Assembly: GCA_976551045.1 (NCBI GenBank)
Contig: CDPCPM010000176.1
Coordinates: 7,750,001 to 7,814,000 of the forward strand
DNA: 64,000 nt
Source of the DNA: Glaucostegus cemiculus
Taxonomy: Eukaryota
Reading direction: 5' to 3'
This document shows positions 12,940 through 57,918 of this stretch, one piece after another; the first letter of the stretch is position 1, and each line of letters begins with the position of its first letter. The notes beneath the pieces were generated by a model. The model did no database searches. It was not told the DNA's origin and saw only the letters and a program-made list of their open reading frames with translations. The translations under genes and the position numbers were made by a program.

Positions 12940-13570
12940 TTAGAACACAGAACATACAGCACAGGAACAGGCCCTTTGGCCCATCTTGTCTGCATGGAAC
13001 ATGATGCTGGATTAAACTGAATCTCTTCTGCCTGTACATGGTCCATATCCCTCCATTCCCTGCAGGTTGATGCGTCTCACAGCCTCTGAAATGCCTCTAC
13101 AGTATCTGCTTCCACCACCCCTCCTGGCTGCCCGTTCCAGGCACCCACCACTCTCTGTGTAAAAAAAAACTTGCCCTGCACATCTCCATTAAACTTTCCC
13201 CCTCTCACCTTAAATGCATGTCTATTAGTACTTGACATTTCTTCCCTGGGATAAAGATTCTGACTATCTACTCTGTCTATGCCTCTCATCATTTTATAAA
13301 CCGCGATCAGGTCTCCCCTCAGCCTCCGATGCTCCAGAGAAAACAACCCAAGTTTGCCCAACCTCCCCTTGTAGCTAAAGCCCTCTAGTCCGGGCAGTAT
13401 CCTGGTGAACCTTTCCAAAGCCTCCACATCCTTCCTGTATTGGGGGCACCAGAAATGCAAACAGTACCCCAAATGCGACCTAATCTAAGTTATATACAGC
13501 TGCAACGTGACTTCCTTACTCTTCCACTCAGTGCCCTGACCAATGAAGGCAAGCATACTGTACGCCTTAT
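12940..13570 (-). mobile_element. CR1 LINE 3' fragment
   Basis: ORF 13077..13472 FWCPQYRKDVEALER...GLFSLEHRRLRGDLI...FFTQRVVGAWN. Confidence 0.9.
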
Positions 13571-13869
13571 TTACTTGCATGGCCACTTGAATTTAAATTA
13601 TTCCATTTCCATGGCAGTATTTGAACTCATGTTCAGATCAATAGTCCAGGTCAGGGAAAGTAGTCACCGGGACAACTGTGGGGGAATGGGATTGCTCTGA
13701 GAGAGTCTAGATTCAGTGGGCTGTATATGTTGTAATATCTCACATTTCTGTGGCATAAGGAAATATGAGATCTAAAATTTTAATTAAATCAAAGTGTTCT
13801 GACAGATTGGATAAGGGAGTGTTCAGAACATTACAGCCCGGATCCCTGTTGGGAATGGTTGATCATCAG

Positions 13870-14536
13870 TGAACACACACCAGTCCTCACTGAGGGGTCA
13901 GCGGTGGAAAGGGGGAGCAGCTTCAAGTTCCTGGGCATCAACATCTCAGAGGATCTATCCTGGGCCCAACACATTGATGCAATCATGAAGAAGGCACACC
14001 AGCGCCTCTACTTCATTAGGAGTTTGAGGAGATTTGGTATGTCACCAAAGAATCTTGCAAATTCCTACAGATGTACAGTGGAGAGCATTCTGACTGGCTG
14101 CATCACCGCCTGGTATGGAGGCTCCAATGTGCAGGATCGAAAGAGGCTGCAGAGGGTTGTAGACTCAGCCAGCTCCGTCACGGGCACAACCCTCCCCACC
14201 ATCGAGACATCTTCAAGAGGAGATACTTCAAGAAAGCCACATCCATCACTAAGGACCCTTGCCATCTGGGACATGCCCTCTTCTCATTACTACTATTGGG
14301 GAGGAGGTACAGGAGCCTGAAGACCCACACTCAACAATTCAGAAACAGCTTCTTCCCCTCCGCCATCAGATTTCTGAACGGTCCATGAACCCATGAGCAC
14401 TACCTCGTTATTCCTCTTTTGCACTGTTTATTTATGTTTGCAATTTATAGCAATTTTTGTGTCTTGCGCTGTACTACTGCCGCAAAACAAGAAATTTCAC
14501 AACGTACATCAGTGATAATAAACCTGATTCTGATTC
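13870..14536 (+). mobile_element. Rex1/Babar-like LINE 3' fragment
   Basis: SFKFLGINISEDLSW...KKAHQRLYFIRSLRRFG, frameshifted; AATAAACCTGATTCTGATTC tail. Confidence 0.9.
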
Positions 14537-15009: not shown

Positions 15010-15015
15010 TTTATT
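15010..15015 (-). terminator. Candidate polyadenylation signal of the secreted-protein gene
   Basis: AATAAA on minus about 450 nt past the stop codon, followed by GTGTGT. Confidence 0.45.
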
Positions 15016-15466: not shown

Positions 15467-15642
15467 TTAATCTCCACACAATAAGCATGTGTTTTTACTC
15501 TTGATTTTTCCATGGAGTTTTTCCTTGAGCTCCCTTTCAAAGGTTGAAGTTATGTCAGTCTCATGGCTGTAGTTGTACAGTGCATCTTGACAGCGCTCAG
15601 GGAAGTAGTGAGATGGGTGTGCGCTCACTGCTGTAGGGTGTT
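15467..15642 (-). CDS. Uncharacterised secreted Cys-rich protein, last exon 6
   Basis: 176 nt incl. TAA, ttcgcag/; (E)HPTAVSAHPSHYFPERCQDALYNYSHETDITSTFERELKEKLHGKIKSKNTCLLCGD*; frame agrees with ORF 15467..15685. Confidence 0.85.
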
Positions 15643-16083
15643 CTGCGAACGGAACAGATGGATTTATGAACTGAAGTGAGCCCATTGTTCTGTGGTTTCA
15701 CTGTCCGGAAGACTTCAACAACAGTCAGTCAACATGTGCACTGAACTACGCACTGGCTCTCCATGTTAGTGAATCAACCTGTCTCCACGACCTCCAGTGT
15801 ATCCTGGATCCCAGCTCCCTCTGCGTGAACAATTTATTTTTCACATCCCCTCTAAAACTCTTACCCCTTACCCAAAATTTACACCCTCTGGTTTTAGACA
15901 TGGGGAAAACTTCCCTGCTAGTGATCCTCATAATTCTGTACACCTCAATCAGGGCACCTCCTCAGGAAAACAGGCCCAGCCTCTCCATCCAGCTCCCTCC
16001 CACATGTCCGGTGTCCCTGGGAATATCCCTCAGTGACATCTTCAGTCCAAATCCTCTACAGAAAGTGAGTCTGGGGGACCCAC

Positions 16084-16198
16084 CTGTGCAGACAGCCAGC
16101 TGATTCCCTCTAATGTACTGAGTGGTCCATTTATAGTCTGTTGCTTCTCCACAACTCTCATATGGCCGACTCAGCCTGAGGAACTGGAAGTCAAAACC
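16084..16198 (-). CDS. Uncharacterised secreted Cys-rich protein, exon 5 (second half of sushi/CCP-like domain)
   Basis: 115 nt, tgcacag/ ... CAG/gtgggt; phase 0 to 1; GFDFQFLRLSRPYESCGEATDYKWTTQYIRGNQLAVCT. Confidence 0.88.
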
Positions 16199-16432
16199 CT
16201 GTGCAGAGTAAAGTGACAGATTAGTGATGGTTTATCTCCACATGAAGAAACCTCGCCCTCTACAACGTACTCAGGTACTGAGTGCTCTCAGAGTCCAGCT
16301 CACAAGTCAAGGGTATGGAACACAATGTCAAGGATCTCCAAGGTAACGCACATCTCATACATTCAGCATCAGGATCTCCCAGGCACCTCATTACTCTTCC
16401 TCATTGTGACTGGCAGGTAATTAATATGGAAG

Positions 16433-16706
16433 GGTGTGTGTGTATGCACGTGTATGCGTATGTATGTATTTGTGTGGATGTGTATATGTGTGCGTGTGTA
16501 TGTGCATGCGTGTGCATATGTGTGCATGTGCGTGTCTGTATGTGTCTGCGCGTGTATGTGTGTGCATGTGTGCATGTGTGTGTATGTGTGTTCATGCATG
16601 GGTATGTGTCTGTGTGCAGACATGTGCATGTGCATCCCATCCATGTGTATGTGTCTATGTATATATGTAATAGGCACACAGCTGTGTAAGTGCAGACATG
16701 TGTGTT
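16433..16706. repeat. Degenerate (TG)n/(TGCA)/(TGTA) microsatellite
   Basis: Visible alternating purine-pyrimidine tract; source of the spurious C/V and H/T ORFs. Confidence 0.95.
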
Positions 16707-18394
16707 GATTGTGAAGAGCAGTGGGGTTAATTAGTCCCAGACGATGAATTGTCCATCAGCCACTGTCTCTGTAACAGATAATGTGGCCACCAGCACATTG
16801 CTGTTTGGGACCCTTGGTGTGAGCAGGTTGCTGCTACGTTTCCCATGTTGTAACAGTGCCCACGTTTCCAAAGTACTTTCACTGAGTTCATGTACAATAC
16901 TGTAAAAGCCTGACGTTTCACCTGACCACACATACCTGGGTGGTTATACCTCCCTGTTTGTTTGATTACTATGTATGTATGTACATGCCTTTGACAGTCT
17001 CACAATCCCAGCAGCAACGAAACTCATCTCACCAATTCTTTCCTTGATCTTGTGACCACGTTACGCTTCTGAAGCAACACTAGTTACGAATCAGTAACAC
17101 CAGTCAACTGGACATCGGGGAGGCTAAACCCTCCATCTCATCCCCATCATCACAAATACCTCGGTCCTTCCAGCAGTGTGCTCATTACAGCAGAAATTCG
17201 AATGGTGTACCACTTCAATACTGCACCTGTCCAAGTAGTGTACCACTTCCCTTGGCTGAGGAGCCAAGAACCAGGGGCCACATCTCAGAGTAAAGGGTTG
17301 GCCATTTAGAATCAAACTGAGGTGAAGTTTCTTCCCTTAGATGGTGGTGATTCTTTAGAATTCTCTACCCTGGGAGGCTGATGAGGTTCGCTCACTGAGA
17401 TGGTTTAGAACAGAGATGGATTAAGTCCTTGATATTAAGGGAATGGGTGGATATGGGGATGGGCCATAAACTATAAATACAGGAGCAGAATCAGGCCACT
17501 CGGCCCATCAAGTCTGCTCCACCATTCAATCATGGCTCTTCTTTTAACTCCATTCTCCCACCTTCCCCTTGTAACCCTTAACCTCCCCCCTTACCAATCA
17601 AGAGTCTATCAATCCCTGCCTTAAATACATACCTTAATCATGCTAAAAAATGGTGGAAGATAGCTATGGTCTTGATGTATGGTGGAGCAGGCTTCAAGGG
17701 TCCAATGACCTTCTCCTGCTTCTATTTCTTAGGTTATGTTCTTCCTTGCTATGTCAGACACAGCCCTCCATAGAGTTATGCAGCAAGGAAGCAGGCCCTT
17801 TGGCCCAACTCATCCATGCTGACCGAGCCAGTCCCACTTGCCCGCGTTTAGCCCATATCCCTCGAAACCTTTCCTATCCACGGACCTGTCCGAATGTCGT
17901 AACCGTACCCGTCACTACCACTTCCTCTGGCAGGGGCACAAGGTGTGATTCTCCACAAAGCCCACTTTGATGTAAGGCTGTCCTTCAAGAGATACTCATG
18001 TCATTGACTGGGTACGGGGTAAAGCTGCCTGCCTGGTGTCTTTGAGTAAAGAGGGGAGAAGGAGATCAAGGTTTGAAGGAGAGCTTGGGACGAAAGGTTT
18101 GTATGTCTCAATGAGATCACCTGTTTTTCTGTGTTCTAGAGGACACAGGCCTAGTCTATTCAACTTCTCACCTCTCTCTCCCTCTCCACTTTCACTCAAC
18201 TGTGGAAAGGGGGAATCAACAAGTATCCCCCTCACTGACTAATTCAAAGAACGATTCCGCTGGGCAAGTCTGCATCTGTGAACGTCAGGAGACCTCACGT
18301 TCCAAATCCTCAATCATTTATTCCGATTTGTGGTTAGGCGGAAACAAGCTTCAAGCCCACCAGTTGGGGTGTGATGCAACGGTGTGTGCTCTGA

Positions 18395-18466
18395 CCTGAG
18401 GGAGGCAGAGGTAGCTGTGGGGAGCACATGCTCTCCTGAGGGAGGCAGAGGTAGCTGTGGGGCACA
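18395..18466. repeat. About 40-bp tandem duplication
   Basis: CCTGAGGGAGGCAGAGGTAGCTGTGGGG occurs twice in tandem. Confidence 0.85.
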
Positions 18467-18631
18467 GGGAAATGGAGATCCAGGTGGGAGCACAGCCGTG
18501 GACCGATCATACAATCCTCGATTTTCTCTCAGTTTTTCCTGCTGCTGTCTTTACTAATGGTGCAGGTGAGAGAGGGATGAAGGTCGAGAGCACTCACTGA
18601 GGCAGCTGAAGTTCCGGCATGGATTCCCTAC

Positions 18632-18744
18632 CTTGTTACACATCGGCTTGCAATAGCGGGTCTTGTTCAGGGTGAGACACACCAGGCCACCGCCAGTGGG
18701 AACAATGGGCAGGCTGCAGTTCCTGGGGTTGACACTCTGACAAC
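18632..18744 (-). CDS. Uncharacterised secreted Cys-rich protein, exon 4 (first half of sushi/CCP-like domain)
   Basis: 113 nt, tttaaag/ ... AAG/gtaggg; phase 1 to 0; (G)CQSVNPRNCSLPIVPTGGGLVCLTLNKTRYCKPMCNK. Confidence 0.88.
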
Positions 18745-18809
18745 CTTTAAAGAAATCACAAGTATTGCATTTGCAAACTTAGAAAGGACAAGAGATTCTG
18801 CACCGAGTT

Positions 18810-19776
18810 AGTCAAACTCCAATAATCGGACTGTCTGGAAATTCCGATAGTTTGGGGTTTGGCTCACCAGGACCCCAGCTCGAATGCTCCCTTCAATCTC
18901 ACCAGGTTCCCAGTTCCTGTGCTCCTATTAATCTCATGGGACATTGGTTCCCGCACTCCCTTTAAACCCACTGGGCCCCATTTCCTTCACTCCCTTTAAT
19001 CCCACTGCAGCCCCACTTCCTTTTTCTTATATTCATTCATGGGCTGTGGGCTTCGCAGGCTGAGCCAACATTTAATTGCCCGTTCCTAGTTGGCCCTGGA
19101 GAAGGTGGTGATGAGCTGCCTTCTTGAACGGCTGTAGTCCCTGAGGTGTGGGTGTACCCACAGTGCTGTTAGGGAGGGAGCTCCAGGACTCTGACCCAGT
19201 GGCACTGAGACACTTACAAGTCAGGAAATATTAGTTCCTGCACTCCCTTTAATCCCTGGTTCCCTCCTCCCTTTGCTTTCCCTGCGGCCCTGATTCCTAC
19301 ACTCCCTTTAGATAAGATAAGATCTTTATTAGTCACACGTACATCGAAACACACAGGGAAATGCATCTTTTGCGTAATGATTTTTGGGGGGCAGCCCGCA
19401 AGTGTCACCACACTTCCGGCACCAACATAGCATGTCCACAACCTCCTAACCAGTATGTCTTTGGAACGTGGGAGGAAACTGGAGCACCCGGAGGAAACCC
19501 ACACAGACATGGGGAGAACGTACAAACTCCTTACAGGCAGCGGCCGGATTTGACCCCAGGTCGCTGGTGCTGTAAAGTGTTACGCTAACCATTACACCAC
19601 CATGCCTGAGATTCAAGAGTTTCACTGGAAAATTTATTATATTTGTGTAACATTTAAAAAAGAGTGAATTAAAAGTGGTTTAGGGTATTAATCAGTGTAA
19701 TATCCAAAGTTCTGGAAAACCTGTCAGTTCTAGAACCACCAATTCTCAGAGGGTGTCGGATTATCGGAATTGCTCT
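18810..19776. mobile_element. Putative non-autonomous DNA transposon (Tigger/pogo-like MITE) with nested LINE fragment and SINE
   Basis: Imperfect inverted ends AGTCAAACTCCAATAATCGGA ... TCGGATTATCGGAATTGCTCT; internal repeats of GCACTCCCTTTAA. Confidence 0.4.
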
Positions 19777-19829
19777 GTGTTGTGCCACTGTAGAAGTAGC
19801 TTCAAGATAAGTGTGTCAAAATACAAATC

Positions 19830-20900
19830 AAAGAGCAAAAAAACTGCAGGTGCTGGAAATTCAAAATGAACTCAGGGAATGCTAGAAGTTCTCAGCAGGT
19901 CAGGCAGCACCCGTGGGGAGAGAACTACAGTTAATATTTTGGGCCGGGGATCCTTTCACCAGATTAGAAAAAAAATGAGAAGAGTGTGAAACAGTCACGA
20001 AGGGAGAAGAGAACTGAGGGGATATCAGTGACAGGGGGCAGACCAAAGTTGTTGAAGTAACGGTTACCTTATAAACTAGTTGTTAGAACAAAATGATATG
20101 GAAACAATCTGAGACTTAACAATTTGAGATCAAAGTACATCCACATCAGTGGAGTAAAGGGGGCTTACCTGAAATTATTAACCTCAGTGTTAAGGTCCAA
20201 GGGATGTAACGTGCCTAGTTGGAAGATGTGTCCCGTTCCTTGAGCTTATGCTGGAACAATATGGGAAGTTGGAGGGGTCGTATTGGGAATGGGACAGAGA
20301 ATTAAAGTAAGGACGATTGGAAACTTAGGGTCCTCCTTGTGAATGAGGATGTTCTGCAAAGTGGTCACCTAATCCGTGCCTGGTTTTTCCAATGTAGAGG
20401 GGACCATATTGTGAGCTCTGGACTGTGGAGATGGAAGAAGTAAAGGGCAGGTCTACCACCTCCCTCAGGGAAAGTGGTGTGAGACAGGGAGTGGTTGGCG
20501 AAGATAGAGCAGGGAGGTGAAGAGGGAAGAGGCAGTTCGGAATGTCGAAAGGGGAGGAGAGGAGAAGGTGCATCTGATGATGGAATCTCGTTGGAGATGA
20601 TGGAAATTATGGGGTTCAATGTGGAGGCTGGTGGGCTGGGAAGTGAAGATAAAGGCAAACCTATCTGTGTCCTAGCTGGGGGGAGAGGGGTTGAGAGCAG
20701 AAGTGCAGGAGGTAGAGATGATAAGATGAAGAGCCCTGTCAGCGATGGTGGAGGGGAAGCCATGGTTAAGGGGAAAGGAAGACACTGGTGCGCAGTCTCA
20801 TCAGAGCAGATACAGCACAGAGACCGGGAGGATGGAATGGAGTCTTTACGGGAAGTGGATTGCAGGCGGTGTGTTCGAGAAAGCAATGGGAGTCTGTGGG
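19830..20900 (-). mobile_element. Penelope-like retroelement remnant (GIY-YIG endonuclease region)
   Basis: LYIGKTRHGLGDHFAEH (ORF 20325..20573) and KDSIP...CCICSDE (ORF 20365..21009), followed by the terminal repeat. Confidence 0.8.
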
Positions 20901-21484
20901 CTTCTGATGATGCTCTCACTGGTGTGATCTGGCCTATTGCATCCTCTTTCTCACAGAGGCCTCCAGATTCCCAGATTTCCAGAATGAAGAGAAGTTTGGA
21001 TAGGTACATGGATGGGAAGGGTTTGGAGGGATATGGTCTGGGTGCAGGTAGATGGAACTAGGCAGAAGATCAGGTTGGCATGGACTAGATGGGCCAAAGG
21101 GCCTGTTTCCCTGCTACAGTGCTTTATATGACTCTATTCCACGGCCTGGTTGACTAAGGTGAAGGATTTTGCAATCAGAACAATCTACTTTGTACCTGAC
21201 TGCATGAACGATTCTGTCTGATTTGAAGCGATCTGTAAAGTGAGGCAGAGAGGAGGGGTTGGAGCTGACAGCTTTCACCGAAACAGCCGTGACCCTCACT
21301 GTACGGAGAGAGTGATGGGAGCAGTTCCTGGTCTAATCTTACACTGGATTCACTCCTGCATCAGTCGGCTCTCGGACCATTCCAGCTTAAAAGCAGAACA
21401 TTTCCCTATTTGGATAATGCGGAGATGGAGATCTCATGAAGTTACTGCACTGGCAGTAATGCCTCTCACCTTATTGGTTGGTTT

Positions 21485-22045
21485 AGAACCATAGAACAAT
21501 ACAGCACAAAACAGGCTCTTCAGCCCACCAAGTTGTGCCGTCCTTCAAACGTCTCACAATCTAACTCTTTCCTCCCACATATCCTACTATTCCACATTCT
21601 TCCATGTGCCTATCCAACAATCTCTTGAACCTGTCCAACGTGTCTGCCTCTACTACCACCCCAGGCAGCACATTCCATGCGCCACCCACTCTCTGGGTGA
21701 AAAGCTTCCCTCTGACATCTCCCCTAAACTTTCCACCCAATATCTTAAAGCCATGCCCTCTTGTCTTGTGCATCTGCGCTCTGGGAAAGAGGCGCTGGCT
21801 GTCAACACTATCTATTCCTCTCAATATCTTATACACCTCTATCAAGTCTCCTCTCATCCTCCTCCTCTCCAACGAGTAGAGCCCTAGCACCTTAAAGCCT
21901 CTCCTCATATTCCATACCCTCTAATCCAGGCATCATCCTGGTAAATCGCCTCTGCACCCTCTCCAACACCTCCACATCCTTCCTACAATGCGGCGACCAG
22001 AACTGAATGCAATATTCTAAGTGCGGCCTAACTAGAGTTTTGTAA
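21485..22045 (-). mobile_element. CR1 LINE 3' fragment
   Basis: ORF 21561..21908 LGLYSLERRRMRGDLIEVYKILRG...TRGHGFK. Confidence 0.9.
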
Positions 22046-22283
22046 ATACAAAGATGAGAACCACAGAACGTTGTCCCTCATGCCAAGCTCAACCCACGTC
22101 CCATTAAGCTGCTGTTCCAAAAGGACATTGGGTGCTCTGGCTTAAATTTATCAGAGAAACAAAACACAAAGAGGGGCCCATCCCAACCGGATGCAACAAG
22201 GAATGAGGGACGCAGGTGCAGGTGCAATGGGCTGGATCACCAGGGTTCGGACACTGGAATTTCATGGAAGTAAAGGTTGGTAC

Positions 22284-22398
22284 CTTTTCTACGGATGGAC
22301 CTCAGGTTGTCAGCAGCGGTCTGCAACAGCCTGTAGAGTTCACTGTGCTGTGCGGGCTCCAGCCCCTTGATGAACTGGTTAGTACAGTTGATGAATGA
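22284..22398 (-). CDS. Uncharacterised secreted Cys-rich protein, exon 3
   Basis: 115 nt, gtttctcgttccctctacag/ ... AAG/gtacca; phase 0 to 1; SFINCTNQFIKGLEPAQHSELYRLLQTAADNLRSIRRK. Confidence 0.8.
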
Positions 22399-24074
22399 CT
22401 GTAGAGGGAACGAGAAACAATGTCAGATGTAGGATGTAGGTGTAGAGCCTCCGCCTCACAGATCCAGAGACCTGAGTTTGAACCTGACCTCGGGAGCTGT
22501 CTGCGTGGAGTTTGCACGTTCTCCCTGTGACTGTGTGCGTTTCCGCCAGTTGTTCTGGCTTTCTCCAACATCCCAATGATGTGTGGGTTGGTAGGTTAAT
22601 TGGCCGCTGTAAATTGCATGTAAATGAGAGAATATGGGGGGAGTTGATGAGAATGTGGAGAGAATAAAAAAATGGGATCAATGTCGGATTAGTGTAAATG
22701 GGTGGTGGATGGTCAGCATGGAGTCAGTGGGCTGAAGGGCCTTTTTCCATGCTGTAACTCGCTGTGACCATGAGCTCTGCCAATGTACTTGGATGCGCCT
22801 CTTCTCGGTCCCTGTCTGAACAAGGGATCTATTCATTGAGTCATACAGCCCAGAAACAGGCCCTTTAACCCACCCAGTCCATGCCAGCCATAAACCACCC
22901 AGTCACACAAATTCTACATTAATCACAGGGAGAACGTGCGAGCTCCACACAGACCGCACCGGAGGTCGGGATTGAACCCGAGTCTCTGACGCAGAGGGGC
23001 AGCGGCTCAACCAGCTGTGCCACTGTGCTGCCCATTTTGTCCAGGTAATGCTGCAGAGAATGGATCAACTCATCTGTGCAGAGATTGAGAGACAAGCTTC
23101 TTTAATGTGACATCTGATATTTAGATATTTACTTATTGGTTACATGTACATTGAAATGCCCAGTCAAATGTGTCTTTTTGCATTGCTAAGAATGTGCTGG
23201 GGGAAGCCTGCTAGTGTCGCCACGCTTCCAGCGCCAACATAGCATGCCCACAGCTCCGAACCTGTATGTCTTTGGAATGTGGGAGGAGACCCAAGCAGAC
23301 GCGGGGAGAACATACAAACTCCTTACAGGCAGCAGCAGGAATTGAACCCAGGTCACTGGCGCTGTAATAGCGTTACATTAACTGCTATGCTATCGTGCCG
23401 CCCCAATACATTATGGAGGTTACATGAAAGTGGGAGTTGCACCAAATTAAACAGCACCAGAGGGTAGCGCCAGGAGGAATTTTTTTGGACTGCACAGGTT
23501 TGCATATTTGCTCAGCTGGCAAAATGACAACTTTACTATACCTCTACGGGTCACTAGTTATTAACCGCGGTGACTGAATTGCACAAAGAGTGGACGTGCT
23601 AAGGCTCCATCCCAATGGATTGTGGCACTGGAGAAATATAGTCTCATATTGTCCGGGATGGGATGTTCTTATTGGGGGTGGACTATATCCTATTCATATC
23701 ATCAGAGGAATGCAGCAACAAGTGGAGGCCATTCAGCCCCTCAACAGCATTCCATCAGTTAGATCAAGCCTGACCAATATTTTAACCATTAAACCTCCTT
23801 GTTGATTCTGAAAATCATTGCCTGGGAAATCTATTGATCTCAGTTTTCAATATTGTCATTGAGGCTGAACCAGAGCAGCAGAGAGACTCTATGGATCCTT
23901 GGATGTTCTCTGACATCATTTCTGAATGGATGAGTTCAAGGTTTAAGGTTGTGCCCCTGTCCATTGACCACCACTGCTCATCTCTCTATGCTGAGATGCT
24001 TCCACACTGTGGGCTGAGAACTTGGTGACTTCAGCCAACTTTACTTCTTCCCCTCCCGGGCTCCTGTTACCAGG

Positions 24075-24930
24075 TGTATGGGGATGGAATCCATGATGGT
24101 AAAGGACTCGCTGGCAAATGCCACGGAACGGTTGTGAACAACAGGGGGAAGGTTTCAGGAGTTTCAACAATTTCAGGAGGGTCCTGTGCAGGGGTATGGG
24201 GCATTGTGGTTGTTCCCGGAAATGGTTCGTGTGGGTCTTGGGGGTATTAAGAATTCTGGACACCGTTTGGTTTACTAACAAAGAGAACTTTATTATAAGC
24301 TACAGACGCAGAACGCAGGGCAGGATGGACGGGAACGGGGGTACATTCACTCACACACACACTTGGATACCCGCGAGACACGAGAGAGGGATCGCAACAG
24401 GGGTAAAATAAACACACACACACACGCTGATGCATACAGGTAATCAGTAACAGTATACTACTTCAGACTATAACACTACAGTGCTGGGCCCACCCTAGCA
24501 CTGGCTCTAACACTACCCGGAGTTTGAGTGGAACACTCCTTGACCATGTGGCGATGCACTCTTACCAAAGGTTTCTGTAGTGTTACCTCACTACTCCCAG
24601 GTCGTAGAAAGAGGAAGAGCTGGGGTCTCAGTCCTTTTTATGGTGCTGGAAGGCTGGGTGGAGCCTTACTGTTACCATTTGAAAGAGCCAATAGTGGAAA
24701 GGTCAAGGACAAAAGCCTCTGCCACAGCCAATGGTCAAGGGAGGTCAAAGACAAAAGAACTGGTTAGACAGGTTTAGGGTCAAGGGATACTCTCCCACCT
24801 GAGGGGTGGGTGGAGCTGCACCTTGATTGACAGGAGGATGACTTCCGATTAGAAGGAGCAATACTGTCTTCCGGTCAGCGGGGGTCGGGGGGTCACTGCT
24901 GTCACGTGACAGTCATGTTGATTTCTCACA
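24075..24930 (-). mobile_element. Possible solo LTR
   Basis: TG...CA ends, CCAAT motifs, minus-strand CATAAAA (about 24640) and AATAAA (about 24290); no clear target-site duplication found. Confidence 0.4.
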
Positions 24931-25802
24931 ACAGTGGTGGAAGAATTTGGGAAAAAATCCATGTAGAGCTGCTCAGGCCTCTGTACATTCTGGTTCCACT
25001 TTGTCCGCTCTCTTATCCCGATGGAAAAGTCATAACTGCTTCTCCTCAAGGTCTGGATAATCTCCAGTCAGGGTCACTGAGCACATCAGACTCTGATCAG
25101 CATTTCCACTGGAGTGGTACTAACAACATGGGAATTGTAGAGAATTTCTGTGGTTTGGAATGGACTGTCTGAGACTGTGATGGTTCCGTTCAAAAAGGAA
25201 GTCAATATGTTCTTGAAAAATTAATTGTAGGGATACAGGGAAAGAGGCAGGACATGGGGCCAACAAGTTTGCTCTTGCAAAACACTGGCGTAGCCTTTGG
25301 TGGGCTGAATGGCTTCTGCTGTGCAGGAGCAATTCCTGGGCTCTGTGGCCTTGCCTGGCATTCACTGCCGATCCTTAAATGTCCTTGAAAAGTCTGGAAT
25401 GAGCTGACTCCGTGAAGCACCCCAGTCCCGGTGAAGGTGCTCATGAAGTTCTGCTGGGAGGTCAGCTTCAGGATTTAGACTCAGAATTCAGATCTTTTGT
25501 TTCATTTATTCAAGGGGTGTGAGCTTCGCGGGCTGAGCCAGTATTTAATTGCACATCCTTTCAGAAGGTGGTGGTGAGCTGCCTTCTTGAACCGTACAGT
25601 CCTTGAGGTGTGGGGGGTACCCACAGAGTTGTGAGGGAGGGAGTTCCAGGATTTTGACCCAGTGACAGTGAAGGAACAGTGCTATATTTCCAGGTCAGGA
25701 TGGTGTGTGGCTTGGAGGGCAGCTTCCAGGGGATGGTGTTCCCCATGGTTTTGCTGCCCTTGTCCTTCTAGTCGGTAGAGGTGGTGGCTTTGGAAGGGAA
25801 GA

Positions 25803-26530
25803 TTCTATAAGACTATAAGACATGGGAGCAGAATTAGGCCAGTCGGCCCTTCAAGTCTGCTCCACCATTCGATCATGGCTGATTTATTTTTCCCTCTCAA
25901 CCCCATTTTCCTGCCTTCTCCCTGTAACCTTTGACGCCCTTACTAATCAAGAACCTATCAACCTCCACTTTAAATTTACCCAATGACTTGGCCTCCACAG
26001 CTGCCCGTGGCAATGAATTCCACAGATTCACCTCCCTCTGGCTGAAGAAATTCCTCCTCATCTCTGTTCTAAAGGGACGTCCTTCTATTTTGAGGCTGTG
26101 CCCTCTGGTCCTAGACTCTCCCACTGATGGAAACATCCTCTCCACATCCACTCTATCCAGGCCTTTCAATATTCCGCAGGTTTCAATGAGATCTCCCCTC
26201 ATCCTTCCAACCTCCAATGAGTACAGGCCCAGAGCCATCAAACTCTCCTCATGTGCTCATCTTTTCATTCCCAGGATCATCTCGTAAACCTCCTCTGGAC
26301 CCTCTCCAACGCCAGCACATCCTTCCTTGGATACGGGGCTCAAAACTGCTCACAATGCTCCAAGTGTGGTCTGACCAATGCCTTATAAAGCCTCAGCATT
26401 ACATCCTTGCTTTTATATTCTAGTCCTCTCGAAATGAATGCTAACATTGCATTTGCCTTCCTTACTATTGACTCAACCTGCAAGTTAACCTTCAGGGAAT
26501 CCTGCACCAGGACTCCCAAGTCTCTTTGAA
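25803..26530 (-). mobile_element. CR1 LINE 3' fragment
   Basis: ORF 25897..26241 ESRTRGHSLK...RRNFFSQREVNLWNSLP; (TCTTATAG)n tail. Confidence 0.9.
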
Positions 26531-28696
26531 CTTCCGAAATTCAGTTCCAAAATGGAGATGATGAGGAAGACATAATGGAGAGCTTCAAAGCCAAAGGAAG
26601 ACTTAAACAAAAAAACAAGGACCACCAGTTGGGGAAAAGGAGCAGAGCAGCAGATTGGTGAGACTGGACCAAAACTAATATGGACTCTGCAAGCGGAGGC
26701 AGTGTTAGAAGCCAGAAGACCAGAAGAAATTTACATCCAGAAGCCTTGGTGCAAAAGAATTCTGTTGACAGAGACGGCTTAACATGATATTATACAATAT
26801 AATATAATATAATACAAGACTATGATTTGCATTAATGGAAAACAAATAAAATTACAGAGCTCCAGTTTGAAAGCAGTAACCCCTCTACTCTCCCCCCAAT
26901 TCTGAGGAAGAGTTGCTGACCTGAAGTGTTGACTGGTTCCTCTTTCCTCAGGTACTGCTTGACTAGCTGAGTTTTCCCAATATTTCTGTTAATTCCTGAA
27001 TTCCATTATTCAGGTTAGCACCACTCAGTGATCGATGTCGCCTAGGTAACTTCACACTGAGATCACTTTGTTCATGAACAAAGCATCACGGTAAATGAAG
27101 CATTCATTTTCTGGGCAATGGAAGAGCACACCTGAGGCTATTCATGGACCGTGGATGCTCTCAGAGTGCTGTGCCCTAGCACAGCAGGACTGTAGGTAGG
27201 GTGGACTACAGTGCAGAGGCAGACCCCAAGATACAGGCTTCAGAAGGAAAAATGGTGGATGGGTCTAAAAAGGGAAAAAAGTAAAAGGGAGAAGCATGTT
27301 TAGAAATGGAGAAGAAGGAAAGTCTACGTGTAAGACAATGTGTGGACAAGAAAAAGAAGATAGGGAGTGATAAAAGGCAACCGAAGACTGTTATTGTCAA
27401 GTCACGCTCTTTGGTGGTGTACCAGATATGTTGTATAATTGGATTGGTTGTAGTTATTAATTAGGACTATTAGATATACGCATTGTTTATGTAATCTGTG
27501 TGCTGCATACAGTGCTTAAGGTTCTGGAGATAATTAACACTAATGTGACAATTATGGAGATGTTAAGTACATCTGGCAGTGAGGAACCTGTAGATGAATC
27601 TATGAAATGAGCATATCAATATTTGATAACCGTATAGCCATTTGAGTCATAGAGTCCATACGTAACAGAAACAGGCCCTTCAGCCCATCATGCTCATGCT
27701 GCCTGTTTACCTATTTACACTAATCCCATTTACCCACATTAGGTTTCTATCCTTCTGTGCCTTGCACAATTATATGTAGACATTTTACGTAAATAATTAG
27801 TTGATAGCATAAATTCAAAAATGTAGGTAGTTACCTGACGATGTAAGTCAATGTTTGTAAAGAGGTAATGGTTTGCATGGGTTTATTATCTCTTTTAAAG
27901 GGAAAATAATTTGGTAAATATAAATGTGAGTGTACCTTTAAGAACTTGGTATATCACTTGGTATGACCTTGGAGATTTCTTGCTCCAGACTCTGTTGTTG
28001 GCTTGACAATAGCTGCCTTCACCAAAGGCTGTCCTATTGTTAAATCTCTCTGGACTGATAGTACATGTGACGTTATACACACCTACGAACATTACAAAAT
28101 CCCAGCTAAGTCGTGGTGTTCTATGTGCTATCTCACAGGGTGGGATCACACCTGGCATCTGGAGTTCTGACTGAAGCTTGGTATTTAAATTTCAGTTCAG
28201 TCATCCGGTACTTCTGACTCCATATCTTAGTAAGTCTCACTGAGACTGGAAAATAGTTGGTAATCCAAGCTAACGACCAGGATATTTCATGAAAGAAAAG
28301 CAATGCTGACAATGTCAGGACAGGATTTCTTCCTGTGATCTCCTCCACTAAGGCAGACAGACTCTGGATCCTCCCACGCCAAACATTGTTGCAACAGCAC
28401 AGAGCAGTTAGTCCTTTGTATTAATAGTCATAATCCTTCAAGTGGTATAACCTTGCAACACTTTGAGTGTTCCCAACCAATATTAGATATACCCCTGAGG
28501 TGAAAGACAGTGTGTTCTCCCACACTAGTCCCTCAGATCTGACTATTGAATCAGTGGAGCTCCAAGGCTCCTGAACACTGAACCAATTAATACTCAATGG
28601 CACTTTCTGATAATTCAGCTGCAGCTTCCAATGCCTGAACAATCTTTTTGCCCCATCTGACTGAGGAAGCTAATCAGTACTCAATAAAACTCATAC

Positions 28697-28779
28697 CTGC
28701 AAGCCATTGGTAAAGTTTAGGTAGGTATCAAGGCCCAACGCATTGTGACAAGTGCCAGCATCCTTCAGTACATATGCAC
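28697..28779 (-). CDS. Uncharacterised secreted Cys-rich protein, exon 2
   Basis: 83 nt, ctttag/ ... CAG/gtatga; phase 1 to 0; (G)AYVLKDAGTCHNALGLDTYLNFTNGLQ; bridges exons 1 and 3 in frame. Confidence 0.75.
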
Positions 28780-30620
28780 CTAAAGCAACAAAGTTATTTC
28801 ATCAAAACTCATCAAAGTGACTTCAGAATATTTACTATTCCTGCTCATGCATAGCATACACTATGCATCCAGTACATAGCACACCACAGCCATGTTATTT
28901 AATGGGCTGAACCTTCAACCTCTATAATACATACTGCTCCTGTGCCTGTTACCATGCAAAGATTTGCAATTTCTGCTCCCTTCCATCCTATCCACAGTAC
29001 TTTACAGCAAAAGCTCAGTGCCTCTTACAGTCCAGTCATAGACTCATAGAGTCACTAAGCACAGAAGAAGGTACTTCAGCCCAACTGGTCCATGCTTGCA
29101 AGAAGCCCATCTCCCTCTAAACCTGCCCTATCCATGTACCTGTCCAGCTGTCTGTTAAATGTTGTTATTAAACTCTGGTTTCCAGACTCATGCCACATCC
29201 CAAAGCCATGGCGTTTATTGGTCACTGTAAAGTGCCCTTGGTGTAGGTGGGAGGTATTTGGGGTAGAGTTAATGGGAATGTGGGGAGAATTGGTTACGAG
29301 GAAGATTAGTAGAGGATTGGGATTGCACAGTGTGATGGTTGGTCCAGGATATATCACGGGATTGGGATATCAACAGGAGGAAGAATGTTGAGAGAATGGA
29401 TGGTTTGTGGGGGGGGGGGAGGAGAAACGTTGAGGAAAGGGACACTGTGGCATGATGTGTGATCGGCTGTGGTGGTCAGTCGTGATGAGGATTGGGGAGT
29501 GTGAGGTTGGTGGGGTTGGTGTGGTTCCCAGTAAGTAGGAGGGAGGGCAGAGGGTGTGCATCACATACCACATCCATAGCATTTAATGGGCAGAACCATA
29601 GTGGTGAACATCAACCAAAAGACAGGGTAATGATGATGGTGATAAGATGATCAGATGACGAGCTCATTGAGTTCTCCTTTACCTAATGCCAGCACAACCC
29701 TTCTTGTACAACCTGCCTCAACGTGTAACGTGCTGTCCGCAGGTCTCAATGCTCACATGATGTTGAGGTGAGTTCTGCATGTTGTATGACCTCAGTGACC
29801 ATGCCCTGTGGCCTTTGGTCCATGACCCATAATTCACACACGGATGCAGAACAACATTTCAAAAGGGTGCAGTTCATGTGCCAAAGACCTGCTGCTATGT
29901 GGTGACCAGCTTTGAGCTTAAGTTCCTTATGTAGCGGTGCAGCCCCCCTGGAGCACCACACTTTCCCATGGTGGGGGTATCAAAAAACAGGAGGGCATGG
30001 GTTTAAGTTGAGGCCAAGGGGTTTTAAAAGAGATCTGAGGGGTAAGTTTTCCTCACTGAGGGTGTGTGATATCGGGAACCACTGCCAGAGGAGGTGGTGA
30101 AATCAGAGACAATCACTATGTTTAAGCGACATTTAGACGGACACTTAAATAGGCAAGGCAGTGAAGGACGTGGACCTAATGCGGACAAGTGTGATTACTC
30201 TAGATGGGCAAAAAGGTCAGCAGGGGGGGGGTGGGCCAAAGGGCCTGTGTCTGTGCTGTACTACAGGGCTGGCTTGGATTACATACCTCAGTAGGAGTCC
30301 AACGCACTGACATTGAGGCAATAGCTGGTAAATGCCGTGTCATGATCCCTGTATCCTATGCAATCAATTGCTATTAATTCAATCTCTCCCTCCTGCTCAT
30401 ACCTTTTACCCTTTATAGACCTTCTCAAGCTGCTGCCTAATTCCCCCTCTAAAGCTATAATAGGGATTGTTCTTGATACTGACAAAGCTAAAACCTCTGA
30501 GTAGCTCCAATTGCAACTCCTGCTCTGGTAATGTTTTCACCCGCACCCCCATCTTCCCCCTTCTCCCCGCACTCCCTGCGGCCAGGCCGCTTGCGGTGAC
30601 CCAGTTTAAACGCACTGTAC

Positions 30621-30678
30621 CTGGGGTGAGAACGCAGATGAAGCCAACCAGTCTGAGAACAGCAGGCGTACGAGCCAT
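30621..30678 (-). CDS. Uncharacterised secreted Cys-rich protein, exon 1 (signal peptide)
   Basis: gacATGG start, MARTPAVLRLVGFICVLTP(G), 58 nt, donor CAG/gtacag, TATAAA about 55 nt upstream of ATG. Confidence 0.75.
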
Positions 30679-30731: not shown

Positions 30732-30804
30732 TTTATATTGTACAGCGCTGGGAGGAGGACAGACAGAGCAAAGAAACTGTTAATCATTAAACAGGTTGAG
30801 AAAT
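30732..30804 (-). promoter_or_regulatory. Proximal promoter of the secreted-protein gene: TATA box, HNF1 site, C/EBP-type site
   Basis: TATAAA (minus) 30732-30737; GTTAATCATTAAA 30779-30791 (12/13 to HNF1 consensus GTTAATNATTAAC); TTGAGAAAT 30796-30804 (fits TKNNGNAAK). Confidence 0.6.
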
Positions 30805-36157: not shown

Positions 36158-36306
36158 NNNNNNNNNNNNNNNNNNNNNNNNNNNNNNNNNNNNNNNNNNN
36201 NNNNNNNNNNNNNNNNNNNNNNNNNNNNNNNNNNNNNNNNNNNNNNNNNNNNNNNNNNNNNNNNNNNNNNNNNNNNNNNNNNNNNNNNNNNNNNNNNNNN
36301 NNNNNN
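36158..36306. other. Assembly gap (others at 39024-39157, 53649-53815, 63678-63845)
   Basis: Runs of N. Confidence 1.
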
Positions 36307-39300
36307 ACTGCAGGCTGTGACTGGTGGCAAAGCCCCACCCCTGTCTCCAACGACTATCAAAGCTGCAAATGGTTTACGACATTTAAGATATTAATATTGA
36401 AATAAAATACACCAAAAAGATATTAATACACTAATTTAAAAATAGCAAAAGTAAATTGAATCATCTACAATTGCCCATTCATAATTAAAAATATTTAGCA
36501 AATGCAAAATAATTTTAGGAAAGGGAATCTTACCTTAAGGAATGTGGCAGGTTCCATTCCACAGAGATCCTCCTCGGAATCAAGGGTCACATCTGGCACA
36601 GGATCCTGTCGGTAATTCCATTAGGCAGGAGAATTCCGGCCTCTGAACTCCGAACTCGCAGTGGAGCAGACCGACAGATTCAGCATTCCGAGACTGTCGG
36701 TAATCCTGGGACTCTGTGTTTGAGAGCACTTGTGCAGAAATCCCAGACTTGCTGCTGTTTAAACACCACCAGTTCCATTCTAAACTGCTGCCTTTAGCCA
36801 TTGGGATCCCTGCCAAATCAGAGCGGGAAGCCTGAGGACTGTGTGAGTTTTGTAATTCAATAAAAAGATGACCAAGAAATCGATGGAGTAATATTCTAGA
36901 ATTTGGGAGTAAATTAAGCTGAGTCGTGAAAACAGATGGCAAAAGCTTATATTAGCAGCTGTGTATGTCAGGGAGGGTGGGGGTTATAATGGGAATAAGA
37001 AAATGGGAAGGCCATTAAATAAATACTTTTTGTCTGCCTTCATAGTAGTACATAAAATGATTCCTGAATTTATGAAAAACCAGGGGTTTAGTGGGGATAA
37101 AAGGTCTACAGAAATCCATATTTCATCCGGACTAGCCAAGGACCATATGGCTTTAACAGGAATTGTGCACTTTTACAAAAATGTTATAACTTTTAAACTG
37201 AATCCACATTCTCAACCTATCATGGTGGGATGAGAGCAATGTTCACTCGATTAGTCTAGACTTCTGATTTCCAGTCCGGCAACAGAACTGTTATTTTACT
37301 GTACCCCTGGAGATATGTGTGAAGTTTCTTTACACATTATTGTCATTGACAGAGACAGACAGTTTACAGTCTGATCCCATAATCTTTTATTGATTTTGTT
37401 TTCCCTTCAGGTTTACATATTTGGCCTTTACAATCTTTATCAAAGACTTAAATGAGGCGAACAAGTTTGATTGAAGATTTGCTGATGATACAATACTAAC
37501 AGGGAGACTAAGCTATGAGCAGGGCTCAGAGAGGTTGCATGGGGACAGAGACCAGTTAAACAGGCAAGAAAGTCCAAGCTGCACTCAAACATCGGGGAAG
37601 TGTGAGGTTATTCATGTTATTGGGAGGAATGGAAAAGCAGGTCATTCTTTTAAAATGAGTGAGATTAATTGGGACCTGAGTTTTCTCTTGAACAATTCCC
37701 TGAAATCTAACATGCACCCACCCAGAACAACCAGTGAAGAAGGATGAAAGATTTACAGTATATTTAGACTGTGGCTTTCACAACCTTGGGTCACCAGAAC
37801 TGCTTGTTGAGTGGGTTTTGAAACATAGCCTCTGTTGAAAGTTAGGAAACACTTCAATCAATTTGTGCAGAGCAAACTCACAGCAATGAACTAATAATGA
37901 GGTAATCTGGTTTTAACCTGGTGGTTGAGGGGAACATGTAGCTGGGATAACATTATCTTTTTCATCCGTTGAAAGAAAATTTCAGTTAATATCTCATCTG
38001 TAAGATTACATCCCCAACAGAGCTCAGTAGTGTTGTCTTCTACTCAGAGGAGGTTGGAGTGTGACCCCCTCCGACCCCAGTGTCCAGGCTGATACAACGT
38101 GTGACTCCTGGTCACTTGTGTCGAATGGTGGGATCCCCAGTGGGTTGTGCAGTCTATGAAGCACTGAGTGAGTGTGATGCTGTCAGAGATATAGACCTTG
38201 ATGTGAAATGTTAATCTGGCTTCCCCGGTGGGAATAAGAGACGCCTAGACACTTGAAGTGCTGGAGTTCTCCTTGCCAACTAAAGTCAGCGTAAGCAGTC
38301 ATTCTCTCTGCAGCTTGAATCAGCATGGTGGCACGGGAGGTGGCACAGTGGTGCAGCTGGTGGAGCTGCTGTCTCGCAGTTCCAGCAACCCAGGTTCGAT
38401 CCCGACCTTGGGTGCTGTCTGTGTGGAGTTTACACGTTCTCCCTGTGATTGCGTGGATTTCCACCGGGCGCTCGGCTTTCCATCCACGTCCCAGAGATAC
38501 GCTAGGTTCGCTAGGTAACTGTTTGCTGTACTAGTGAGTGATACTGGGGGAGAGTTGATGGGAATGTGGGGAGAATAAAATGAGATCAGTGTCAATGGGC
38601 ACCTCATTGTTGCCACACACTCAGCGGCCAAAGCGCCCGATTCCACGCTGCACGACTCTATGAATCTTTGGTTGCCATAGAAGCCTTGGGGGCACTTTAA
38701 GCACTTGTGAGATAAAATGTAAATTCGTCTTTAACACAGTATTTTATAGGTTGAAGAGAATTCACAAAATGCTCAGAGGTTACGCCACAAACCTCAGAAG
38801 GACTGAGAAATCTGGAGCAGGCATTAGTGTGCGTAAGGTGGCTTATCTCTACAGCAATGGTTTAGAAATGGGTGGTGGTCTAGTTTTAGTGCAGATGTCA
38901 TCCTGGACGATGCCCCCTGCATGTAAGAGTAAACACCCATTAGAGGGGTACATGCATGATGCGGGGATTTAAGAGAGAACCTCGTCAATGGAACCCGGAC
39001 TTAGCACCAACAACTGAAGGCATNNNNNNNNNNNNNNNNNNNNNNNNNNNNNNNNNNNNNNNNNNNNNNNNNNNNNNNNNNNNNNNNNNNNNNNNNNNNN
39101 NNNNNNNNNNNNNNNNNNNNNNNNNNNNNNNNNNNNNNNNNNNNNNNNNNNNNNNNNCATCTCTCATGGCACTTTTAGTTTTAGCTTTAGTTATGTGCTA
39201 AATGATGATTGTGTTAAAAGAGAAAGAAAGATCAAACGTGGCAACACCTCCCAACTCTCAGCTGGAGGCCCGAGGTCCCTCACTGTACCAGACTCCTACC

Positions 39301-40391
39301 TGGTTCCTTCCTTATCTCTGACTCATTCAGTTCCCGAATCTGCAGTTTACAAATCAGCTGTGCTGCAGGTTACTCCTCAGTTTGCCCAACATTGAACCAT
39401 CTCTTCTCCATGTGTAATTCTTCAGTCATCCTCCTTCCAGCCCTGCTGGAAATGCACAGGGTTAAGATGGAAAGTACACATTTCTGGGCACCATGTGTTA
39501 GTAGAGCCGTTAACGTAATTGTAAACGTAGATTCAACAGCATCGCAGGAACCTGAGGAGTGGACCATTGAGAGCCCTGAGCTTGCCCCACAGAGATAGGA
39601 AGCTCAGCTCTGAGTCAGGATATTGTGGGTTAAAATCCCACTCCCGAGTTATGAACACATGTGTCAGGGTGTCAGAATTCATTATTGTCATTGGTTTGGA
39701 TAATGTGAGGTCTTGTCAGGTTAATATTAAAGAAGTAATGGGAGAATTTTAATGAAGAGTAGGGATTTCTTCATGATCTGCTGGTCAACAGTTATCCCTC
39801 AACTAGCATGAACCATCTGGACACAGTATCATTGGACATTTGCAACACAGGAGGCCATTCAGTCCGTTGTGTACGTTAGTTGATAGAGAGGTCCCCAGCC
39901 TAACCCCAGCTCCCAGCACTGGGACCGTAGCCATGCAGCCACAGTTCTTCAACTACACATCCAAGTACATTAAAATTGACCAGATCTTCTGCCCCTCCCA
40001 CACTCTTTGACGATAAGTTCCAGACACCCATCACGATCTGGGTGAAACACCTTTCGTCATCTCCTGTCAAATCCTTCCACCCATTACTTTAAATCTGGTT
40101 TCAGTGCCCTCATTTTATCTACTTGATCTCTGCCCTTCATAATTTTGTAGGCATCAATTATGCCTCCCCTTAGCTTCTGCTTTTCCAAATAAAACAGGCC
40201 AAGCCTATCCAAACTTTCCTCATGGATACAGCTTCCAGTCCTGGCAACTCCTGATAAATCTGTTCTGCACCTTCTCCAATGGAATCACACCTTCTGCATA
40301 ATGTGCTACCAGAACTGTGGTGCCTAATCTGTGGTTGGTAATTCATTGCCGAGGTAGGGTTTTCCTGGCTGCTGCATTCCCTACATTATAG

Positions 40392-57344: not shown

Positions 57345-57414
57345 CTGAGAAAGGGAAACAGGCGTGATTAGAGAGCAGGAAGGGGGACTGGGTCAGGGTC
57401 AGGGTAGATGTAGA

Positions 57415-57918
57415 ACACTACAGGAAGGATGTGGAAGCCATAGAGAGGGTGCAGAGGAGGTTTACAAGGACGTTGCCTGGATTGGGGAGCATGTCTTATG
57501 AAAACAGGTTGAGGGAACTCGGTCTTTTCTCCTTGGAGCGACGGAGGATGAGGGGGGACCTGATAGAGGTGTATAAGATGATAAGAGGCATTGATCGTGT
57601 GGATAGTCAGAGGCTTTTTTCCAGGGCTGAAATGGTGGCCACAAGAGGATATAGGTTTAAGGTGCTGGGGAGTAGGTACAGAGGAGATGTCAGGGGTAAG
57701 TTTTTTACTGAGAGAGTGGTGAATGCATGGAATGGGCTGCCAGAAGCAGTGGTGGAGGCAGATACGATATGGTTTTAAGAGACTGTTAGATAGGTACATG
57801 GAGCTTAGAAAAAGAGGGCTATGTATAAGCCTAGCAATTTCTAAGGAAGAGACATGTTCGGCACAGTGTTGTGGGCCGAAGGGCCTGTATTGTGCTGTAG
57901 GTTTTCTATGTTTCTATG
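57415..57918 (+). mobile_element. Young CR1 3' insertion
   Basis: ORF 57431..57778, close similarity to 3720-4218, (TTCTATG)n tail; about 70 nt from the exon 5 acceptor. Confidence 0.9.

Follow-up and report, generated by a model that had tools for sequence, protein, structure and literature searches.

What protein, if any, do six short exons scattered along one strand of a ray genome encode, how widely is it shared, and what might it do? The locus lies in a 64,000-nucleotide stretch of Glaucostegus cemiculus DNA (GenBank assembly GCA_976551045.1, contig CDPCPM010000176.1, positions 7,750,001 to 7,814,000; hereafter the window, numbered from its first letter). An initial annotation of this stretch had proposed a hidden gene for a secreted glycoprotein with a sushi or complement control protein (CCP)-like domain. 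Judged from sequence, the gene model is correct, and the gene is an intact orthologue of the si:ch1073-126c3.2 family of vertebrates, whose predicted sushi domain and C-terminal tail recur as a unit in invertebrate proteins.

Results

The gene is encoded on the minus strand by six GT-AG exons, whose 660 coding nucleotides specify 219 residues and a single terminal stop. The coding part of exon 1 (30678-30621, 58 nt; residues 1-20) provides a likely signal peptide, ends in a phase-1 donor and is identical at 19 of 20 residues to a protein of Pristis pectinata (P0001). Exon 2 (28779-28697, 83 nt; residues 20-47) carries C30, the sequon at 41 and the start of a predicted helical hairpin, and exon 3 (22398-22284, 115 nt; residues 48-86) contributes predicted helices 53-59 and 62-88, C52 and a basic stretch at 80-85. 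The first half of a six-cysteine sushi domain lies in exon 4 (18744-18632, 113 nt; residues 86-123), with C87, C95, C108, C117, C121 and K118. The second half lies in exon 5 (16198-16084, 115 nt; residues 124-162), with the basic loop 126-137, C139, W147, Q150-Y151 and C160. The coding part of exon 6 (15642-15467, 176 nt; residues 162-219 and stop) adds a tail with Y174-F175, C179, C214 and C217, a predicted helix at 186-204 and a predicted strand at 213-217. The five introns (1841, 6298, 3539, 2433 and 441 nt; phases 1, 0, 1, 0 and 1) have pyrimidine-rich acceptors. The protein contains 13 cysteines, 12 of them beyond the signal-like part, five N-glycosylation sequons (residues 41, 51, 94, 112 and 185) and, by hydropathy, only one strongly hydrophobic 19-mer, starting at residue 6.

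Querying longer proteins with exon 4 returned a single candidate, the 219-residue Pristis protein, which NCBI names si:ch1073-126c3.2. The joined frame aligns to it without gaps at 196 of 219 identical residues with all 13 cysteines co-positioned, so the frame is not a product of chance. Breaks in family matches also fall at the exon junctions: among 112 matched stretches from 104 proteins, all unannotated sequences of other organisms, starts cluster at profile positions 122-123 (21) and 161-163 (14) and ends at 123-124 (12) and 161-165 (21). The model rests on sequence rather than on spliced reads, which leaves room for an accidental string of exons or a defunct copy; given the gap-free identity, the retention of every cysteine, an open frame with five canonical introns and the promoter motifs upstream, we regard this as barely conceivable. 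The proposed six-exon structure with 219 residues, 12 mature cysteines and five sequons was thus reproduced, backed by the Pristis match, and a homologue with the same cysteine pattern, named in the initial annotation as a check, exists in that protein. The sushi pattern had been described as bounded by phase-1 introns; introns 3 and 5 bear this out, but an additional phase-0 intron, previously unmentioned, interrupts the domain. No second copy of the gene was found in the window.

Against the family profile, the gene scores 262.6 bits over profile positions 5-220. All eight near-invariant module cysteines, W147 and Y174-F175 are present, and each of these cysteines is kept in 41-43 of the 41-43 rows covering its position. 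In the family tree, the gene is sister to Pristis (100/99) within a starred nine-row clade in which every named member is a cartilaginous fish. The earlier comparison with the teleost si:ch1073-126c3.2 family was right, as the Pristis orthologue carries that name over a full-length match. Calling the gene 'hidden' overstated its novelty, since orthologues are already annotated; the full-length match that had been suggested as a check leads to an annotated but uncharacterised family member. No described function was found for si:ch1073-126c3.2, for which the literature under the gene name consists of omics surveys, and nothing was found under other accession or locus names of the family.

The family extends from jawless fish to birds. 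Of 92 candidates for the Pristis query, 15 matched, from rays, skates, teleosts and a newt. When 1.84 billion representatives were scanned with the profile, 104 matched, none longer than 539 residues; among the 30 looked up by name are whale shark, chimaera, bichir, caecilian, axolotl, eight frog species, suboscine birds, lamprey and hagfish. A bird query returned 61 matches among 275 candidates, 59 of them named (41 birds, 1 crocodilian, 3 turtles, 4 amphibians, 7 teleosts and 3 cartilaginous fishes). Three of the 61 rows bear the automatic UniRef name 'Sushi domain-containing protein', so the sushi label itself is not new. No mammal or squamate occurs among the 59 named matches of this search, which is insensitive, having missed Pristis itself; the same result agrees with the earlier remark that no mammalian orthologue could be recognised. 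In the zebrafish plasma tables available to us, the human and mouse homologue cells for si:ch1073-126c3.2 are empty (PMC4829857). The family has likely been lost in mammals. A second loss in squamates is possible: the named matches of the same insensitive search comprise turtles, a crocodilian and birds but no lizard or snake. The earlier view of a jawed-vertebrate protein proved too narrow, as lamprey and hagfish have the family and the module also occurs in invertebrates. Frog members sit on long branches in the tree.

A predicted model of the Pristis protein, built from 43 sequences, reached a mean predicted local distance difference test (pLDDT) of 87. It comprises a signal helix, helices 36-51, 53-59 and 62-88, a strand-rich region at ~95-162, helices at 179-204 and a strand at 213-217. 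A module-only fragment (P0041, 47 sequences) was predicted with pLDDT 89.6 and a predicted template modelling score of 0.85, which fits a single compact unit. In fold searches with these predicted models, residues 93-163 match CCP domains. In each of four PDB fold searches E-selectin led the sushi matches, at rank 1 overall in three and with 20-24% identity. In the full-model search it ranked sixth behind helical matches to the hairpin (Z 5.1, root-mean-square deviation 2.0, 59 residues), and in the module-only search first (Z 4.9, root-mean-square deviation 2.1, 59 aligned), where each of the first 25 rows of 50 bears a CCP according to its title. Foldseek likewise gave E-selectin as best match (probability 1.00, E 7.6e-3). 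The CCP framework is present as C95, C121, C139 and C160, with W147 between the third and fourth of these cysteines. From this consistent list of fold matches and the cysteine/tryptophan pattern, residues ~93-163 are predicted to form a six-cysteine, selectin-like sushi domain rather than a complement-regulator repeat. Structure prediction with Foldseek, proposed in the initial annotation as a check, thus led to CCP chains, E-selectin first, and the predicted models support its sushi/CCP-like call for these residues. Searches of solved-structure sequences with the family profiles returned three rows each, all at E 0.39 or worse. For the tail (164-219), or the module with its tail, no fold match was listed, from which neither a new fold nor an absence follows.

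By the disulfide pattern of selectin repeats, the predicted pairs are C95-C139, C121-C160 and C108-C117. For the variable cysteines, presence agrees for C87/C214 in 37 of 40 rows, for C30/C52 in 30 of 35, and for the crossed combination C52/C87 in 34 of 38; co-occurrence cannot tell these pairs apart because amphibians lost all four. The amphibian members (P0012, P0021, P0023, P0028, P0030-P0038 and P0042) mostly lack cysteines 30, 52, 87 and 214, which were lost together.

Conservation is concentrated in the core of the domain. Core identity to the gene is 43/66 (65%) in lamprey, 44/66 in hagfish and 42/66 in a manakin; it ranges from 36 to 46 of 66, against 6-22 of ~62 in the hairpin (jawed vertebrates other than stingray). 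A basic residue occupies position 118 in 43/43 rows, 131 in 41/42 and 134 in 39/42, and core net charge is at least 0 in 40/40 rows (median +3). The conserved polar residues are K118, N122, D126, R131, S133, R134, E137, T143, Q150 and Y151; no recognisable catalytic set was found among them, and RGD or KGD occurs in 0/43 rows.

The family profile also matches larger invertebrate proteins over positions ~78-218. These include a 432-residue protein of Phallusia with FN1 repeats, labelled 'fibronectin' (CAB3246632.1, E 4.2e-12), two further nameless FN1-repeat relatives, and proteins of Capitella and Lingula with EGF, sushi and ephrin-receptor-like repeats. Across 10 vertebrate rows aligned with 8 of invertebrate type (three of the eight carry names), C95, C108, C117, C121, E137, C139, W147, C160, C179 and C217 are kept in 10/10 and 8/8 rows, and P101 and G104 are likewise invariant in all 18. 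Profile comparison by hhalign reached 99.1% with the tunicate protein (138 columns) and 97.0% with a Lingula protein (118 columns). As controls, the six ordinary sushi repeats of this Lingula protein went unmatched by the family profile, and an ordinary sushi repeat in P0112 scored -4.7 bits. Because the tail cysteines are co-conserved with the domain, hhalign recovers both parts together and the profile passes over ordinary sushi repeats, the sushi domain and C-terminal tail are, at the level of sequence, one module of a distinct type that has no Pfam model. The invertebrate-type relatives reach 14.9-20.4 bits against Pfam Sushi (PF00084), whose cutoff is 20.7.

The FN1-type rows are the highest-scoring non-vertebrate rows (53-68 bits). 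In the module tree, which is unrooted, has long branches that meet and had three rows dropped for lack of an anchor, the three FN1-type rows lie nearer the vertebrates than the other five; no order of events was drawn from it. Four proteins of 370-480 residues (P0075, P0079, P0091 and P0119, one from Phallusia), of secreted type with FN1 repeats and the module, are candidates for a separate gene family. That the Phallusia protein is a true tunicate fibronectin was rejected, given its 432 residues against 3698 in the Ciona fibronectin described in the accessible text of PMC5006582. The best outside match in Atlas was a mollusc EGF/HYR/sushi cluster, with a template modelling score of 0.42 over residues 92-217. 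Viral capture was rejected, as nothing reached E <= 0.001 in a fold search, which brought up only weak, ordinary viral CCP proteins; two loci on viral contigs were dismissed as chance (13 bits over 16 positions).

The invertebrate-type sequences also bear on the intron inside the sushi domain. Nine fragments picked from 17 contain a whole sushi domain and end in Cys-x-Gly (8) or Cys-x-Cys (1), as read-through of a phase-1 donor would give. In one metagenome contig (L003, 799-1011), a related six-cysteine sushi occupies one exon with phase 1 at both ends, its donor lying one codon and one base past the last cysteine, the position of intron 5 in the gene. Since related whole sushi domains lie in single phase 1-1 exons, the phase-0 intron is, by this comparison, likely a later gain. 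The metagenome scan pattern spans intron 4 and is therefore blind to vertebrate loci; it yielded two invertebrate-type exons. These exons, L003:799-1011 and L004 ~1525-1737, are whole six-cysteine sushi exons on AT-rich, animal-like contigs and have no Pfam match.

Exons 2 and 3 together span 198 nt and are bounded by phase-1 introns; skipping this cassette keeps the frame and leaves 153 residues. The Petromyzon protein, 150 residues long, has its first sushi cysteine at residue 25, and in hagfish this cysteine is residue 36. Of two sister teleost models, P0039 is missing 67 residues present in P0043 at the hairpin. All of these are gene predictions and possibly artefacts. These comparisons suggest that the hairpin is an add-on cassette, short or absent in jawless fish. 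Its sequence is variable, yet its hydrophobic periodicity is kept across the family and its helices, with a hydrophobic moment of 0.40-0.58, are amphipathic. Among the proteins it matches in structure, several are dimer-forming hairpins. The amphipathic character would also suit an exchangeable lipoprotein-associated protein whose hairpin docks on particles like high-density lipoprotein while the sushi module targets them, and the liver origin and sex-steroid regulation of the zebrafish member (below) agree with such a role. Two helices are short for an apolipoprotein, however, jawless-fish members lack most of the hairpin, and the hairpin carries glycosylation sequons and probably a disulfide, which makes this role improbable.

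The basic stretch at 80-85 had been suggested as a possible convertase site. A cut there would release the active sushi fragment from a precursor as a liver hormone; the gene does have a minimal RxxR at 80-83, and the jawless-fish forms correspond roughly to the C-terminal fragment alone. Across the family, however, Rx[KR]R occurs in 0/42 rows, RxxR in 5/42 and any dibasic pair in 11/42, Pristis has His at position 83 in place of the first of the gene's paired arginines, and the stretch lies inside predicted helix 62-88. A conserved convertase site was rejected on these grounds, and a hormone precursor is very unlikely.

Secretion is suggested by hydropathy, as 70 of 78 family rows of 200-240 residues have a hydrophobic N-terminus and none of the 78 a later membrane-like stretch. 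In the available data of PMC3547925, zebrafish si:ch1073-126c3.2 is the rank 22 transcript of male liver (7303.7 transcripts per million, TPM), falling to 916.7 with estradiol and 431.7 with 11-ketotestosterone. The available zebrafish plasma tables list the protein (24.8 kDa) at 5.2 ug/mL in females and 15.2 ug/mL in males (PMC4829857), which converts to ~0.2-0.6 uM. The earlier description as a secreted plasma glycoprotein is therefore supported through the zebrafish member and hydropathy. A 'Sushi domain-containing protein' is listed for catshark in the accessible part of PMC13701976, and could not be tied to the family.

An abundant, hormone-responsive plasma protein with a single, very conserved sushi domain could act in soluble form as a carrier or decoy whose partner is a conserved protein or a small signalling molecule, comparable to the IL-15 receptor alpha sushi or a hormone-binding globulin. 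The 0.2-0.6 uM level, the lowering of male liver mRNA by both steroids and the presence of IL-15R alpha among the fold matches (Z 3.5) speak for it. IL-15R alpha nevertheless ranks under selectin and complement CCPs, part of the male bias may stem from vitellogenin, which has a diluting effect in females, and cytokines usually drift fast, with which a 65% ray-lamprey identity fits poorly. We consider a carrier or decoy unlikely.

The initial annotation leaned towards complement, and a regulator or cofactor binding C3b or C4b would accord with the liver-made zebrafish plasma protein and with a CCP fold common to factor H, CD46, CD55, C1r/s and MASPs. Complement regulators need three or four CCPs in tandem, and the gene encodes one. 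It is moreover of six-cysteine type, with C108 and C117 near-invariant, rather than the four-cysteine CCP, the family profile passes over ordinary sushi repeats, and the only neighbour seen in the window is MAT1A. C4BP alpha, as described in the accessible text of PMC2118859, has eight CCPs. The nurse-shark plasma study, as far as its text was accessible, lists ten uncharacterised proteins without mammalian homologue, two of them common to fishes and amphibians (PMC9207270); these would speak for the complement idea but are not tied to the family. On balance of these comparisons, a complement role would be distinctly unlikely.

Upstream motifs point to a likely liver-type promoter. An HNF1-like palindrome (30779..30791, minus strand), a likely hepatocyte promoter element, lies ~100 nt 5' of the ATG and 42 nt above a TATA box (30732..30737, minus), which is 59 nt 5' of the ATG and the only TATA[AT]A in the 720 nt upstream scanned. 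Scanned with the HNF1 consensus, the palindrome is the only match with at most one mismatch in 64 kb, where 0.10 are expected; at least one match occurred anywhere in 9 of 100 shuffles. Further upstream (30872-30846, minus), motifs resemble TCF/LEF and HNF4 sites, possibly by chance. Downstream, the first AATAAA (15010..15015, minus), a candidate polyadenylation signal, lies 451 nt past the stop, and a second occurs at 14432.

The only gene seen beside the sushi gene within the window is a MAT1A-like gene (S-adenosylmethionine synthase type 1; ~62300-47250, minus), with exon pieces at 62267, 57400-56800, 54779-54653, 52024-51928 and 47294. It is the upstream neighbour on the same strand, its last exon lying near 47,300 and its end ~16.6 kb upstream of the sushi gene. 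It scores 50.3 bits to type-1 and 42.4 to type-2 enzymes, so an assignment to MAT2A was rejected. The two are liver-type genes in tandem. Mammalian MAT1A lies beside the collectin cluster; no collagen-like or C-type-lectin motifs, and so no collectin neighbour, were seen in the window, and a literature search for MAT1A-collectin synteny found nothing. The window further holds a tRNA-Lys(TTT) gene (9243-9316, plus strand, 68.2 bits), six open frames that resemble decayed reverse-transcriptase ends of long interspersed nuclear elements (1423-1824, 13077-13484, 13784-14388, 40358-41059, 49811-50362 and 57368-57778), and four runs of N, all outside the gene (36158-36306, 39024-39157, 53649-53816 and 63678-63845).

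Discussion

Taken together, we favour, at somewhat less than an even chance, a liver-secreted, glycosylated, non-enzymatic plasma protein that would bind one conserved, probably anionic ligand through the near-invariant basic/aromatic loop of its predicted sushi domain. A non-enzymatic binder of an anionic ligand is preferred because the conserved core lacks a catalytic set and its charge is never negative, and a partner that has barely changed because identity in this secreted domain is still 43/66 to lamprey and 44/66 to hagfish. Hepatocytes would transcribe the gene through HNF1 and TATA, as the zebrafish papers and promoter motifs suggest; the signal peptide would be cut near residue 21, and the protein would circulate in this species at a sub-micromolar level. 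Residues 93-163 are predicted to fold as a selectin-like sushi on which the tail packs via C179-C217 to give one module. K118, R131, S133, R134, Q150 and Y151 may form the binding face. The ligand, little changed since jawless fish diverged, could be a sulphated glycan, exposed anionic phospholipid or an acidic protein surface at injured tissue, for which the protein may act as a soluble adaptor or scavenger in the manner of beta-2-glycoprotein I domain V. In the weakest step, the variable hairpin of exons 2-3 would be accessory, dimerising the protein or slowing its clearance, and not the functional core.

Several observations weigh against this plasma-binder reading. Both folded proteins, P0001 and P0041, are stand-ins for the gene. 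Fold scores are modest, the best Z being ~5, with no Foldseek match at E <= 0.001, and Pfam Sushi (PF00084) is absent at its gathering score from 0/5 exons, 0/15 members and 0/8 further vertebrate members. Hairpin fold matches (Z 4.2-5.6) are at a level common for helical pairs. The gene has Leu 132 and Gln 156 where the family is basic in 76% and 90%, and the conserved basic residues may be structural, as D126 and E137 are equally conserved and could pair with them. The expression evidence is all from zebrafish and is tied to the family by NCBI gene name; the Atlas likeness to beta-2-glycoprotein I (0.77-0.79) is a lead only.

As to origin, a tentative and rather doubtful scenario is that the module, an extracellular unit so far undescribed, was freed from a polydom-like matrix protein, became linked to FN1 repeats before the tunicate-vertebrate split and then, in the first vertebrates, a stand-alone liver plasma protein, gaining a dimerising hairpin in jawed vertebrates. 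It may represent a missing part of wound sensing, clotting or innate defence, kept in fish, amphibians, turtles, crocodilians and birds and lost in mammals. Polydom-like invertebrate proteins do match the module, which may be homologous to the sushi region that follows HYR in vertebrate SVEP1.

The gene itself is ordinary, an orthologue in an annotated, uncharacterised family. It is the family that matters: abundant in zebrafish liver, with ~65% core identity from lamprey to birds and no described function, it was not found in mammals and would have been missed by mammal-centred plasma biology. New here are its range from jawless fish to birds, the module shared with invertebrates, the hairpin cassette, the liver-type promoter and the residue list. 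The Pfam-less module with its invertebrate relatives, the invariant residues and the dispensable hairpin cassette are testable, and since zebrafish, Xenopus and fowl all carry the gene, it is accessible to experiment.

Compared with known systems, the closest is the si:ch1073-126c3.2 family itself (zebrafish gene 555816, UniProt B8JME6), from which no structural difference was seen; the gene differs from Pristis by 23 substitutions. E-selectin short consensus repeats have six cysteines and a tryptophan in like order to the sushi domain; the gene product, in contrast, is single and soluble, with two inserted loops and a 58-residue tail, has no lectin, EGF or membrane part and falls under the Pfam Sushi threshold. 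Beta-2-glycoprotein I (apolipoprotein H) is a plasma protein made by the liver and has an aberrant CCP, marked by an insertion, a basic patch and a C-terminal extension held by a disulfide; its domain V (Atlas feature score 0.77-0.79) may serve as a model of how the module works. It differs in having five CCPs against one here and no sequence match, the tail here being a 58-residue helix-strand unit, and Sushi_2 (PF09014) gave no Pfam match in the gene or the family members searched. The Polydom/SVEP1 chain, as described in the accessible text of PMC12549020 and in part of PMC13722417, combines vWFA, HYR, EGF, pentraxin and sushi arrays, a multidomain architecture that a 219-residue product with a single module does not share. 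In the Polydom/SVEP1-like and SCUBE-labelled proteins of Lingula and Capitella, the module lies among sushi, EGF and ephrin-receptor-like repeats; it is internal in these matrix-type proteins, and in P0110 and P0118 it is followed by a multibasic site and then further domains. The tunicate FN1-repeat protein is of secreted type and has the same sushi-plus-tail module at its end, with FN1 repeats where the vertebrate protein has its helical hairpin.

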